A stretch of 64,000 nucleotides of DNA from Pseudomonadota bacterium (GCA_021325135.1 JAJPHT010000036.1:95491-159490), one strand, 5' to 3'. Positions 25,646 through 55,478 are shown, counted from the stretch's first letter. Numbers and translations: made by a program. Notes: generated by a model from the letters alone, not told the origin.

Positions 25646-26644
25646 TCACGCGCCCGGGACGGGCGCTTCGGCGAGGATCGTCCGCACGACGTCGTGCGCC
25701 TTGACGCCGCGGATGCGCGCCTCGGGCTTGAGGATCAGCCGGTGGGCGAGGATGTGCGGGGCCAGGACCCGGATGTCGTCCGGGACCACGAAGCTGCGCC
25801 CCTTCATGGCGGCGTAGGCGCGCGCGCCCTTGAGCATGGCCTGCGAGCCGCGCGGCGAGCTGCCCACGTAGACGTCCGCGTGCTCGCGGGTGCGGCAGAC
25901 GATCTCGGCCAGGTAGTCCACGAGGGCGGGGCTCACATGGATCGTCTCCACGGTCTGCTGCATGGCGACGATCTGGCGCGGGTCGGCCACGACGCGCACG
26001 TCGGCGTCGTCCTTGCCGCGGGCGATGCGGCGGCGCAGGATCTCGGCCTCCTCGGCGCGGCTGGGGTAGCCCACGCTGAGCTTCATGAGGAAGCGGTCCA
26101 TCTGCGCCTCGGGCAAGGGATAGCACCCCTCCTGCTCGGCGGGGTTCTGCGTGGCCATGACGATGTAGGGCTTGGGGAGCTTGTGCGTCGTGCCCTCCAG
26201 CGTGACCTGGCGCTCCTGCATGGCCTCCAGCAGGGCGGCCTGGGTCTTGGGGGGCGCGCGGTTGATCTCGTCGGCGAGGAGCACGTTGGTGAAGACCGGG
26301 CCGCGGCGGAAGGTGAACTCGCTGGTCTGCTGGTTGTAGACGCTGGCGCCGGTGATGTCGCCGGGCAGCACGTCGGGCGTGAACTGGATGCGGCCGAAGT
26401 CGCAGCCGGCCGCGCGGGCGAAGGTGTTGCTCATGAGCGTCTTCGCCATGCCGGGGAAGTCCTCGAAGAGGATGTTGCCTCCCGCCAGGAAGTTGACGGT
26501 GACGAGGTCTAGGACCTCGCGCTTGCCCACGATGACCTTGGCGACCTCGTCGACGAGCGCGCGGCACGTGCGGGCCAGGTGCTGGACCTCGGGGGTCGCG
26601 GAGCGGCCGGGGGCCGGCGCGGGGCGCTGGAGGATCGCGGTCAC
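25646..26644 (-). CDS. moxR: MoxR-family AAA+ ATPase
   Basis: PGMAKT, RIQFTPDVLP, LLADEINRAPPKTQAALLEAMQE, ATQNP..YPLPEAQMDRF, GSSPR. Confidence 0.96.
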   Translation of the reverse strand: MTAILQRPAPAPGRSATPEVQHLARTCRALVDEVAKVIVGKREVLDLVTVNFLAGGNILFEDFPGMAKTLMSNTFARAAGCDFGRIQFTPDVLPGDITGASVYNQQTSEFTFRRGPVFTNVLLADEINRAPPKTQAALLEAMQERQVTLEGTTHKLPKPYIVMATQNPAEQEGCYPLPEAQMDRFLMKLSVGYPSRAEEAEILRRRIARGKDDADVRVVADPRQIVAMQQTVETIHVSPALVDYLAEIVCRTREHADVYVGSSPRGSQAMLKGARAYAAMKGRSFVVPDDIRVLAPHILAHRLILKPEARIRGVKAHDVVRTILAEAPVPGA

Positions 26645-53500: not shown

Positions 53501-55478
53501 CGCCCAGGCTGCGGTCGCCCCCCGAGTACGTGTCGTTCCCGCCGGCGGCGACGAGGAGGGCCGTGCCGTCGGCGTCGGCGCGGGAGACGCTGTCAGCCTG
53601 GCCGCGGAACGTCGCGTCCCCCGCGCCGTGGAGGAGGAGCGCGACGCCGCCCGCCGAGGCCGAGGCGATGCCGCGGTGGGCGCCCTGGAGGTCGAAGCGG
53701 TCGCGGCCGCCCAGGTCCGCCAGGAGCGCCAGCGTGCCGTTGGCGGCCGCGATGGTCGCGTCCTCGCTGGTGACGTAGCGGTCGTTTCCTCCGTCGTCCA
53801 CAAGGAGCGCCACGGGGAGCGGGCGCGGGAGCAGGTCCTTCGCGAGGCCCGTGGCGCCGTCGCCCTCCAGCGCCAGGAGGCCTCGCGTGCCGGCGCCGCC
53901 TGCGTTGGTGAGGTACGCGTCGTCGCCCCCCAGGTCCCAGCGGAGGACCTGATAGCCCGCGGGGTTCACGAGGAGCCGCGCGCGGGTGGGCGCGCCCTGG
54001 CCTTGGAAGGGCGCGAGGGCGGCGTGCCCCTGCGCGGAGAGGTAGGGCCACGCGCCGCCGTCGGGGGCCTTCGCCAGCGCGGCGTCCACGGAGGATAGCA
54101 GCGCGTCGGCGCTCTCCGCCGGGTCCGCCTGCGGCGCGCCGGGCCACTCCGCGACCACCTCGCGCCCCCCGAAGGAGGCGTCGGTATAGGTCGTCCCGCG
54201 ACCGCTCACGACGACGAGCCCGTAGGGGTCCTGGAAGAGGACGTTGTTGCCGGGGTCCGCCACGGCGGGCGTCTGGAGGAGCGTCGCGCCGCTGGCGTCC
54301 CTCACCGTGAGGGAGCCCGTCTTGGGGTCGAAGGACGGGATGCCCCCCGGGAGATCGAGGCCCGGGCCCGAGTCCCCCAGGCGCACCACGAGGTCCCCGC
54401 TGGAGGGGTCGACGCTGGTGGCGAGGCTGCCCATGCCCAGCCCCTCGTCTTCGGAGGGGGCGGGCGCGCTCATGAGCGCGTCGCGGGCCGCGAGAAGCTC
54501 GTCGGCTCCTGACAGCATCGCGGGCTCGTCGAGGCGGGAGACGGCCTCGCCGTAGCGCACGAGGAGCGCCAGCTGCGCGGGCGTGGGGTCGGGCGCCAGC
54601 GCGGCGTCGGCCACCAGGGCCGGCTCCTGGAGGAGCGCGATGTCTGCAGGCGTCAGCGCGCGCACCGCCTGCTCGCGCAGGTCCATGGCGCGCATCGCGT
54701 GCTGGAGCGCCGCCTGGAGCGGCGCGCGCGTCCCCTCGGGGAGCCCATCGGCCACCGCCCACGCGGCGCGCGTGGGCGCGTCCACGGGAAGCTCCAGCTT
54801 GACGGCCAGCGCGGCCAGCTCCGCCGAGAGCGCGGGCGGCGCGCCCAGGAGGGGAGCGGCGCGGAGCCCCGCCGCCGCGAGGGCGTCCTCGGGCGTGCGC
54901 GCGGCGATGGCGCTGGCCAGCGAGGCGCGCGTGCCCGTCTCGTCCCACGCGAGGCGCGAGTAGGCGGCGGGGTACGAGAGGAGGATCGTCCGCTTCTCGA
55001 ACGTGCCGCGGTACGCGTCGAGGGCGGCCTGCACCAGCGCCGCGCCCGCGTAGGCGTCGCCGCCGGCCGCGAGCGCCTGCGCCCCCAGCGCGGCCTGCCC
55101 CAAGCCAGAGAGCGCGCGGGCGAGGTCCGGAGGGAGAGGATGGTCCTGGAGCGTCGCGAGGACCCCGGCTTCGTCGAGGCCGTCGCCCGCATTCGCCCGC
55201 TGGAGGGCGCGCAGCGTCGTCTCCAGGGGCGGGGGGCTCAGCACGGGCGCCATGAGGGCAGAGGGTATGGAGAGCTTCGCCTGCGCGCCCTGGAACGGGG
55301 CCAGCACGGAGAGCGGGCTCTCGCCCCGCGCGAGGCGGGCCAGGGCGAACGACACGTCCAGGGCGGAGAGCGGCTGCCCGGCCTGGGGCGACGGGGGGGC
55401 GGGCGCCTGGGGCTCGGCGGCAAGCGCAGGCGCGAGGAGCAGCGCGGCCAGGGCCAGCGCGGCGACCGGACGGACCAA
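47508..55478 (-). CDS. 2656-aa secreted surface protein with DxxGNDxY repeats, Ig/Fn3-like domains and a PGF-CTERM-like tail
   Basis: TTG start with GGAGGT just upstream; signal peptide; about 12 LxDxGGNDxY-type repeats; repeated ARDxAGN..DxTPP units; tail VPAPAPWLALLAAAALMGRRRR. Confidence 0.87.
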   Translation of the reverse strand: MVRPVAALALAALLLAPALAAEPQAPAPPSPQAGQPLSALDVSFALARLARGESPLSVLAPFQGAQAKLSIPSALMAPVLSPPPLETTLRALQRANAGDGLDEAGVLATLQDHPLPPDLARALSGLGQAALGAQALAAGGDAYAGAALVQAALDAYRGTFEKRTILLSYPAAYSRLAWDETGTRASLASAIAARTPEDALAAAGLRAAPLLGAPPALSAELAALAVKLELPVDAPTRAAWAVADGLPEGTRAPLQAALQHAMRAMDLREQAVRALTPADIALLQEPALVADAALAPDPTPAQLALLVRYGEAVSRLDEPAMLSGADELLAARDALMSAPAPSEDEGLGMGSLATSVDPSSGDLVVRLGDSGPGLDLPGGIPSFDPKTGSLTVRDASGATLLQTPAVADPGNNVLFQDPYGLVVVSGRGTTYTDASFGGREVVAEWPGAPQADPAESADALLSSVDAALAKAPDGGAWPYLSAQGHAALAPFQGQGAPTRARLLVNPAGYQVLRWDLGGDDAYLTNAGGAGTRGLLALEGDGATGLAKDLLPRPLPVALLVDDGGNDRYVTSEDATIAAANGTLALLADLGGRDRFDLQGAHRGIASASAGGVALLLHGAGDATFRGQADSVSRADADGTALLVAAGGNDTYSGGDRSLGASILGREAGLVDLGGDDRYQAANLSLGASTGGIGLLLDAAGNDTYVDAAATAQGYAAPEADAAPARIAVLADLGGNDAGACGAGRLSNAMLGSANVGRSPFDPAFGVCADLRLAPAPAGTEVPPTFFASSFGNFTLPGLARVGTLGDDVVPGPYVLDVDVMGNDTYGVGAVAVANASRAAKLSMDLGYVGPVSILLDTDGNNLFDAALGQAGDEAGRFGFADGGVAVQATIWSRAAEPTDPSGDLDALGASLARAGDNASAARDALLAGGAPAQALLNVTQQQPSIPPPLEHPSGTNAYLHVHEGLGAARDLGAALVLSEGYATRVDAAPDPRTSCRLACAATGGSALVLSQGGPGDDVTASPGSLGAATPGELGALAVYLHRGGTDRYRGSNESMGALSPVAPSSGERPTVALFVKDGWADDGYDANMTAPGLLREPRGNDAAWQDAALEDAFSEPGGRSLRVAQGVDNLDWYLNANLKRADEGVAPGVGPDDPLAPHEAPLDASSTGPAGETVGEAARAGGYAAGDAAYAALSAAGLGKGFGEPARRLVDQQADAAANDVEHPQEGGGGSASTPDERDQGQAVDDPGSGGSLTGPQGAQPVTLARTAFSPIVHLAAVANPDAESRYAPPHSYASLGETIGFRLDVQAPPAFAESAASPADAIARIELSVRGTGPSWQGCPDPALRDPLDPQACLVVQWNRTDTTPQPHVRRYGASATGWQVDWSASGYVPGSARPLIPPGPYALTFRAFAERPYGEPAAPFGVRDGLLDATLSDAFNYTDDSYGLYGGSSSLAVLLYNTPVIGDSIAVVSSNGAAPATFSAPVTEPCNVTVNVTDDSGSLVPGGSFQVATSFADDPASLARVGFDYVNFTWHGETLPRGRYQFHVHWVGRVSGKAPSPSNDKTPYVWVDDRAPAVSQDPRGTPVRVNASEAPGGRFPVPVLYDPDEASGHGAPVDRIHLWYQEDVLDPADPHRVLERHNWTYAGAATDIGATFANPLPGGGRADWYAPRFPGDPRPGPPRVYRIAAYAEDNAGNVKVADPSTTPPSGPDCVAGRCAVYYYDITPPRTRLALLDPSPELARAAGGPIVLRADAPETPDVARIDVLALPVPPGRDALLQASAVQADPAPAAGPAKPNLTLSAPDEGLALAGPQGLVEAGAPLHLRLKVTNREKGGAFGVDDLTDLSRPVWVRLDLLNDSGAPAMEPVWINATARAGNLVAGGNQTLALDLPAPPAPGLYVLRAGVDLDLTDPNATALPFQAAFAAWTRAPSAGDGTYGYQPDNLTDNESLLFLARGVDLVGNVEEKADYDARVDVDLTPPALAGPAAVDASSTTAVVRFSTTEPASATVEATDDGGNLTQAADDDVALDHEVRLEGLTPGASHRLTLRLVDAVGNAANVSAGPFRTADFVDVRAAALPPLVARPMDVAWNVSARDAEQVVYDVSLSLDGGRTYVANLTGAGLPAYESGNSTHSARLDPATLPESPRARLRVCARPADGGEARACDVTPLFTLDGVAPRTLINASANLSSYQRGPVDLRLSALDNGSGVAAVEWSRDNATFQPASDPVRVAGDAPVDVFVRARDNAGNAEPAQRVRVLLDGQAPALSAELPGGALAGAATVPVLVRASDGLSGVARVDAVADDGFRASLLPRDLVGGVGRLAWSLGGAEGPRWLLVSARDAAGNVAQSNVTLRVDRTPPRLLEGALRAGLTSASADLSWSEPVSVSALLATPEGAIPLDASPALVRADALRPGTAYALVLAARDAAGNLGEARLDFRTLPDFTPPPAPATMGATAEPDGTVALRWAPVADEGGAVVYRVLRGENGSWAPLRTTASPFALDDEAVAGHAYDYRVAAVDGAGNVGPVSPTASVTAREAVKVLAREARVVDGRIEVRVLFSADPGAPAQVVAEGRSFPLAPQGEALYAATLDLGPATLARDPGYHVEAGALRDPPVGEARLPLVAGAPHGRGLAGALRAVPAPAPWLALLAAAALMGRRRR

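Follow-up and report, generated by a model that had tools for sequence, protein, structure and literature searches.

MoxR-type AAA+ ATPases are maturation chaperones. In the Mxa system, MxaR (MoxR), MxaS (DUF58) and vWA proteins serve the maturation of the Ca-dependent methanol dehydrogenase, and in the Bat operon of Bacteroides and Leptospira, MoxR and DUF58 are tied to an envelope complex. Modules that pair MoxR with DUF58, in many cases alongside DUF4350 and DUF4129, are found widely among archaea and bacteria, and their clients and mechanism are essentially unexplained. Here, we describe an eight-gene cluster of this kind (genes A to H; Table 1) at positions 25646-55478 of a 64,000-nucleotide stretch of JAJPHT010000036.1 (GCA_021325135.1, 95491-159490; hereafter the window, with positions counted from its first letter). 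The cluster encodes four giant proteins (A-D) together with a DUF4350 protein (E), a DUF58 protein (F), a small membrane protein (G) and a MoxR ATPase (H). The cluster holds up as a real feature that is both conserved and coherent; its function is one that we infer and weigh below.

The closest described archaeal system was predicted in 2015 by Makarova, Galperin and Koonin (PMC5898192, section 3.2, Table 2). In their account, arCOG01314 is DUF4350, a GldG-like protein with a signal peptide and a C-terminal membrane helix. Its operons hold a COG0714 MoxR ATPase, a protein with Ig and vWA domains, Ig-like 'S-layer' proteins and small membrane proteins, and they were proposed to encode a novel secretion or membrane-remodelling complex (PMC5898192). 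This prediction has never been tested and the envelope system is unsolved; we found no experimental literature on DUF4129/DUF4350/MoxR clusters with giant proteins. A second parallel is the bifidobacterial PFNA cluster (pkb2-fn3-MoxR-duf58-tgm; PMC8430577), which shares with the window a large secreted Ig/FN3-type protein encoded beside MoxR and DUF58.

To judge by family matches and gene layout, E, F and H fit the arCOG01314/DUF4350 system, and G may correspond to one of its small membrane proteins; the cluster is a very large, lineage-specific variant of that system. Protein E matches DUF4350 (PF14258, 4.1e-10) and shares the described topology, in which an extracellular domain lies between a signal peptide/anchor at amino acids (aa) 5-23 and one C-terminal membrane helix (aa 248-266). 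Protein F is a DUF58 protein in the same gene string, a match that rests on PF01882 (6.4e-18), and has an N-terminal hydrophobic hairpin. Protein H is a COG0714 MoxR whose gene follows G at a distance of 142 bp without a change of strand (AAA_3, 2.8e-63; AAA_lid_2, 7e-22), and has both the Walker A (PGMAKT) and Walker B (LLADE) motifs. The small membrane proteins of the 2015 description have 2-5 helices; G has at least two hydrophobic helices (2-4), and it matched no Pfam family, while relaxing the thresholds brought up no homologue. Nor does G show detectable homology to the membrane proteins of 228-240 aa encoded after DUF58 in two related genomes (G009 and G011).

The window departs from the 2015 system in several respects. 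It has DUF58 before MoxR, with the small membrane gene between them, and the DUF1616/COG4743/pfam07760 (arCOG02884) partners described there have no counterpart in the cluster (PF07760: no match among the eight proteins at E <= 0.01). Its surface proteins number four, giants of 1234-2986 aa whose families do not figure in that account, and one of them is fused to a membrane helix and DUF4129. Relative to PMC5898192, the new elements are therefore the families A-C, the architecture of D and the joining of DUF4129 with a giant ectodomain. An earlier note on this DNA had put the assembly forward as a candidate undescribed one, which overstated the case, as the DUF4350, MoxR and Ig-vWA (DUF58) module was already predicted in 2015.

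Because very high G+C content makes spurious long open reading frames (ORFs) frequent, every gene was checked singly; the cluster has 76-81 % G+C against 71.6 % for the 3.77-Mb genome. All eight genes are open on the minus strand over the lengths given in the earlier note, and the G+C content at the third codon position is 0.93-0.98 for each called frame from A to H. For G, this value is 0.94, compared with 0.71 for a competing 168-aa ORF (26641-27147). The longest ORFs of B, C and G run longer than the called genes; the shorter starts, which are those of the earlier note, give the overlaps and the signal peptides. Six successive junctions are 4-bp overlaps (A/B ATGA, B/C ATGA, C/D GTGA, D/E GTGA, E/F ATGA and F/G GTGA), which, with the spacer that follows, bear out the earlier description of seven overlapping minus-strand genes and then moxR. 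On these overlaps and the uniform codon-position G+C, genes A-H are read as one tightly coupled operon. The four giants together span ~26 kb of this copy, and we considered whether they were products of repeat expansion or misassembly. Tandem Repeats Finder returned six arrays in the cluster, all short and weak; long tandem repeats are absent from the DNA, and an origin of the giants in repeat expansion or assembly stutter was thus ruled out. Rfam returned no RNA families in the cluster.

Giant D begins with a hydrophobic segment (aa 14-32), followed by bacterial TSP3 Ca-binding repeats at ~aa 40-900 (window 32154-34736; TSP3_bac, 2.1e-42) and Ig-like domains (CarboxypepD_reg, Big_3_5 and Big_1) at aa ~1390-1703. 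As the earlier note had it, D then spans the membrane and ends in a DUF4129-like domain (both placed in Table 1). Six Lys/Arg residues lie within the 15 residues after the helix, so that, by the positive-inside rule, the DUF4129 tail should be cytoplasmic. The domain sits directly C-terminal to the membrane helix, as in TgpA/PFNA-type modules. However, TgpA-type modules put DUF4129 on a transglutaminase, whereas here it is attached to a giant adhesin-like ectodomain, and the cluster has no transglutaminase, kinase or phosphatase. No transglutaminase (PF01841) was found in the eight proteins or elsewhere in the window, as the earlier note had also observed; the single match in the genome lies on another contig (C42).

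A smaller cousin of the cluster occurs outside the phylum, in the cultured organism Natronosalvus hydrolyticus (NZ_JAOPJZ010000020.1, locus L107, 8-15994). There, a 1979-aa protein with trypsin-like protease and CARDB domains, DUF4350, MoxR and DUF58 are encoded together with a 723-aa CarboxypepD_reg (Ig) and DUF4129 protein. This locus suggests that the C-terminal third of D is the ancestral core and that the company of large CARDB proteins is not confined to the module in this phylum. Among control genomes, Haloferax volcanii gave matches above the curated cut-offs for DUF58, DUF4129 and transglutaminase, as well as matches to MoxR and DUF4350.

The association of giants with the module recurs within the same genome. 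Six MoxR-DUF58 pairs were identified, three of which are preceded by a D-family giant (contigs C27, which contains the window, C14 and C19), and 3/3 of these D-family genes are followed by DUF4350, MoxR and DUF58. Contig C14 carries A'-B'-C'-D'-DUF4350-MoxR-DUF58 and a 1323-aa CARDB protein (nine genes, ~43 kb), and C19 carries D''-DUF4350-MoxR-DUF58 and a 1042-aa CARDB protein; a fourth pair, on C42, is of the classical transglutaminase and DUF4129 type. The window shares the D-DUF4350-MoxR-DUF58 core with C14 and C19, and the A, B and C families are also present on C14. It differs from both in its DUF58-G-MoxR order, its higher G+C content and the lack of a trailing CARDB protein. Such a protein, of ~1,000-1,370 aa, follows DUF58 in some paralogous and related clusters, and nothing comparable lies downstream here.

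Relatives show the same linkage. Using tblastn of A-H against the ~35-40-kb regions around D homologues, we found A-B-C-D followed by DUF58 in colinear order in genomes G001, G002 (two loci), G007, G009, G011 and G017, with MoxR also present in all of these clusters save that of G011. One other family of the phylum has the arrangement too, colinear in G303 and G330 and rearranged yet adjacent in G142 and G237. When the table of D-tail matches was set against that of DUF58 matches, a DUF58 gene was found, by our reading, 1.5-3 kb downstream of ~24 D-family genes and in the same orientation; these genes come from 17 genomes in six families. Other D-family genes mostly lie at contig ends, the true exception being G016:C2, where DUF58 is 8 kb off on the opposite strand. 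Across loci, MoxR is 55-75 % identical, whereas the giants are only 23-35 % identical; synteny has therefore outlasted nearly all sequence similarity. The earlier proposal hung on the giants staying linked to moxR/DUF58 in relatives: DUF58 is linked to them, and moxR usually so, and on this count the proposal is not refuted. The arrangement is conserved over a large evolutionary distance, with three paralogous copies in this genome.

In a MoxR tree, the giant-linked copies fall into three well-supported subclades. The window copy groups with those of G007_C48 and G009_C18 (support 100/98), in a different subclade from the MoxRs of C14 and C19, and these two are also the closest to H in sequence (69-75 % identity). 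The C15, C42 and C8 copies of the same genome form a separate clade, placing transglutaminase-type MoxRs apart from giant-linked ones. The best named relatives of H are from a Thermoplasmata metagenome-assembled genome (MAG; 65 % identity) and from Poseidoniales/Marine Group II MAGs (58-62 %), and we accept, on such protein matches, that the host is an uncultured Thermoplasmatota archaeon. Marine Group II MoxR loci were considered as possible sharers of the system and rejected, as MoxR there lies among NDK, aIF-2 and a ParA-like gene.

The giants A-C are predicted to be Sec-exported, C-terminally anchored, all-beta proteins built of Ig-like, jelly-roll and beta-roll-like repeats. Pfam and NCBIfam matches on them (CARDB, NPCBM_assoc, Big_13, FN3 and an OmpL47-type beta-barrel) are confined to their C-terminal thirds; the best CARDB score among the eight proteins is 3.5e-27. 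Giant A has an N-terminal signal peptide, ~1,900 aa without a Pfam or Protein Data Bank (PDB) sequence match, LxDxGGNDxY repeats at ~aa 500-760, an OmpL47-type beta-barrel domain (aa 2197-2255) and Big_13/FN3 Ig-like domains (aa 2327-2526). PDB searches with A, by single sequence and by profile, returned only FN3-type matches near its C-terminus, and a search of the ESM Atlas with residues 30-1950 gave no usable match. Sequence searches of the PDB with B and C returned nothing.

Structural models filled in part of B and C. The model of C (aa 24-1210, built from a 12-sequence alignment) is all-beta, with a mean predicted local distance difference test (pLDDT) score of 86.8. Its N-terminal, beta-rich module of ~530 aa is lineage-specific and opens, in the alignment, with a conserved WWxxxWxxRxP motif; model residues 536-1187 form six tandem PapD/ASH/CARDB-like Ig domains, each with Z ~10-12 against single Ig domains, and it is on this Ig half that the fold matches of C rest. 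The model of B (aa 850-1990, pLDDT 79.9) contains several jelly-roll domains (MAM/CBM/Eph-LBD-like) interleaved with CARDB-type Ig domains, and its fold matches rest on model residues 205-936; the top CARDB match of B in sequence lies at aa 2443-2528. Aligned with VIA-align, a CARDB Ig domain of B matches 3idu_A, the CARDB domain of Pyrococcus PF1109 (Z 12.0, root-mean-square deviation 2.4, 106 residues), and the jelly-roll domains match Eph ligand-binding, MAM, CBM and InhA2 domains with Z 11-12, moderate values that, for modelled domains, indicate fold class and not function. Foldseek searches with the whole C and B models returned generic multi-Ig proteins (hydin, alpha-2-macroglobulin, complement and titin) at template modelling (TM) scores of ~0.1-0.2, and these were set aside as not reflecting homology. 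The Ca-binding, Ig-like and jelly-roll repeats named in the earlier note are thus borne out by Pfam and by the fold models of B and C.

The distribution of family C is narrow. Its N-terminal module was found in 22 relatives only (E <= 1e-3, among 1.84 billion representative proteins), 20/22 of which are 1219-1440 aa long. Within a 401-genome sample of the phylum, full-length matches to C are confined to the class of the window (families f1-f6) and to family f30. A related-locus search of genome contigs with a 6-sequence alignment of C gave 109 pattern matches, of which 0 were confirmed. The analysis thereby documents three essentially uncharacterised giant protein families in organisms whose envelope architecture is little understood.

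Homologues of A, B and C in Logan report identical longest contigs (24851, 30745, 32233 and 35850 bp), with equal longest contigs in the sets P0004/P0012/P0040, P0014/P0037, P0009/P0038 and P0013/P0039. Through these matching sizes, which are the sole link between them, the A, B and C homologues probably lie on the same contigs.

A, B and C each combine an N-terminal signal peptide with a hydrophobic, Arg-rich C-terminal tail: PAPAPW, a hydrophobic stretch and RRRR in A; APD, a hydrophobic stretch and RRWRR in B; and PAAAPW, a hydrophobic stretch and RRRSS in C. A genome-wide scan for a C-terminal hydrophobic stretch with a basic end picked 81 proteins, and many of their tails belong to two classes, PGF/PGPE-[DE] or [KR]-x-P-A-P-G/W. 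In our reading, the tails of A and C fit the latter and that of B resembles the former. NCBIfam sorting-domain models gave no match to A-C at E <= 0.01. Three exosortase-family (PF09721) genes are present in the genome (C6:51059, C39:65118 and C15:107291), none of them in the window. Given the 81 similar tails and these three genes, it is plausible that the tails of A-C are archaeosortase/exosortase sorting signals. The earlier statement that three of the giants are secreted with sorting tails stands as to the signal peptides and the hydrophobic, Arg-rich ends, and finds no match in a curated sorting-domain model.

In A-D, 52-61 % of Asn residues lie in N-X-S/T sequons (52 % in A) against ~9 % expected (P 1e-8 to 1e-22). 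This excess argues for N-glycosylated ectodomains, and the giants are probably glycosylated proteins of the cell surface.

We favour the reading, at a probability of roughly 55 %, that the cluster is an enlarged DUF4350/MoxR/DUF58 envelope module in which a surface assembly is matured or remodelled by MoxR-DUF58 through D. Giants A-C together with D's ectodomain would form one N-glycosylated, partly Ca-stabilised surface assembly (a coat, adhesive layer or matrix), with E as its membrane-proximal scaffold. D would act as a transmembrane coupler, offering its cytoplasmic DUF4129 tail to DUF58 and a MoxR hexamer, and MoxR and DUF58 would spend ATP inside the cell to mature, load or remodel the complex. 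Other MoxR-vWA pairs that mature extracytoplasmic or metal-containing complexes would provide the parallel. Compared with Mxa and Bat, the eight window proteins include no BatA/BatB-type vWA, TPR or dehydrogenase genes, and the client would be a group of giant structural proteins. The earlier note had proposed that the giants are stoichiometrically co-translated and build a single large extracellular structure with its own assembly ATPase, all of which stays conjectural here.

Candidate clients are named here in three ways, by translational coupling, by class-wide synteny and by the fusion of DUF4129 to a giant ectodomain, and the analysis yields the hypothesis that the DUF4129 tail is a handle for the ATPase pair on surface proteins.

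Several observations weigh against this reading. Some relatives lack parts of the module: DUF4350 was not found in the closest orthologous clusters, G007_C48 and G009_C18, where the D-MoxR interval (G009:C18, locus L023, 7839-8986; G007:C48, locus L025, 7493-8662) contains no minus-strand DUF4350. Two small ORFs on the plus strand stand there instead; their third-position G+C is high in G007 and less convincing in G009 (0.84 and 0.66). G011 has D-E-F and a membrane protein, with MoxR not within 5 kb, and G007_C87 and G015 have DUF58 alone. The metal ion-dependent adhesion site (MIDAS) position of F reads D-x-R-x-x-S, which is non-canonical, and F need not therefore act as a classical metal-dependent vWA protein. 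The form D-[ATN]-R-x-[LVI]-[SA] is common to F and three aligned Thermoplasmatota orthologues (G007, G009 and G011); the haloarchaeal DUF58 protein has D-H-S-S there. The sidedness of F (cytoplasmic or secreted) is ambiguous; the vWA protein of the 2015 system was regarded as secreted (PMC5898192). Large stretches of A and B have no recognisable fold, and that DUF4129 touches DUF58 or MoxR at all is purely conjectural.

The alternative that survives best, though we think it unlikely, is the one raised in PMC5898192, a dedicated secretion or translocation apparatus in which E-H and the membrane part of D would be the machine and A-C the cargo. The argument made there draws on the membrane and extracellular components and on the likeness of DUF4350 to GldG, and the clusters add that the cargo-like giants are invariably found upstream within the operon and that their number per module varies (1 on C19, 4 in the window and 5 on C14), as would suit exchangeable cargo. 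However, A-C have ordinary signal peptides and anchor tails of types common to ~80 proteins of the genome, so that Sec export with archaeosortase-type processing would suffice for them. No channel-forming or polytopic membrane component is encoded in the cluster, G having only 2-4 helices, and the MoxR family is known for maturation chaperones, not translocases.

Somewhat less probable, and to our minds a speculative extension, is the idea that the giants constitute a Ca-dependent, glycosylated extracellular machine that MoxR-DUF58 switches or rebuilds via the tail of D, giving an integrin-like, inside-out control of adhesion or of the coat. If true, this would also give the widespread MoxR-DUF58-DUF4350-DUF4129 modules a first identified class of client.

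The giants might instead act as adhesins or S-layer-like proteins in their own right, with a MoxR-DUF58 stress module as no more than a neighbour; the two would share an envelope regulon and no joint machine. MoxR-DUF58 pairs do occur in many unrelated contexts, and of the 80 MoxR loci retrieved from other lineages, among them Marine Group II and many bacterial ones, none has a homologue of A-D; MoxR or DUF4350 is also absent from some relatives' clusters. Such co-location is nevertheless improbable, as the linkage persists through 23-35 % identity, two rearrangements and three paralogous duplications, the six translational-coupling overlaps cross the boundary between giants and module, and giant D itself carries DUF4129, a domain otherwise characteristic of MoxR/DUF58 neighbourhoods. 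A MoxR-vWA 'ternary' conflict or defence system with the giants as sensors or effectors can be dismissed as very improbable, since the weak match of H to PF20030 bpMoxR (E 4.1e-09) and the fast, conflict-gene-like divergence of the giants are outweighed by the far stronger AAA_3 match, by the lack of any beta-propeller, effector or toxin family in Pfam and NCBIfam scans of the eight proteins and by the nature of the giants as structural repeat proteins with anchors and glycosylation sequons.

Table 1. Features of the giant-protein cluster and its flanks, in window positions
Feature	Position	Strand	Description
A	47508..55478	-	2656 aa; TTG start 5 nt past GGAGG
B	38551..47511	-	2986 aa; signal peptide
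C	34850..38554	-	1234 aa; signal peptide
D	29238..34853	-	1871 aa; TSP3, Ig-like domains, membrane helix and DUF4129
D, C-terminal membrane helix	29574..29630	-	aa 1742-1760, hydropathy scan
D, DUF4129 domain	29265..29471	-	aa 1795-1863; Pfam PF13559, E 1.7e-08
E	28378..29241	-	287 aa; DUF4350 (arCOG01314, GldG-like)
F	27161..28381	-	406 aa; DUF58 (Ig and vWA-like)
G	26787..27164	-	125 aa; small Ala/Leu-rich membrane protein
G-H spacer	26645..26786	-	142 bp; without AT-rich stretch; two CCGGAG/CTCCGG sites
H	25646..26644	-	332 aa; MoxR-type AAA+ ATPase
Intergenic region 5' of A	55479..55728	.	between A and a divergent plus-strand PstS-like gene; presumed operon promoter region

The base composition of this copy stands out from its surroundings. 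The cluster (window 26000-56000) lies 5-10 points above the genome mean in G+C content, and G+C at codon positions 1/2 of A-G is 0.78-0.85 / 0.56-0.69, with 0.70-0.74 / 0.53-0.57 in the paralogous giants of C14. Within the genus, a close D orthologue was found in G003 only (59 % identity); G001, G002 and G004 have only paralogue-level matches. Together, the G+C excess and the single close orthologue suggest that the window copy may be patchy in the genus or may have been acquired from a relative of higher G+C content.

The PstS-like gene (55729-57354, plus strand) is divergent from the operon, and the spacer at 55479-55728 is common to it and A. Two CCGGAG/CTCCGG sites occur in each of the spacers 26645-26786 and 55479-55728, against 0.18 expected per 150 bp. 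The motif was considered as a 'Pho box' that would make a firm regulatory link and was dropped, two sites per spacer being too weak. Directly downstream of moxR, G+C content is 0.61-0.68 at window positions 18000-25000, compared with 0.71-0.81 on both flanks, and tRNAs are present at 16438-16509 and 18494-18566.

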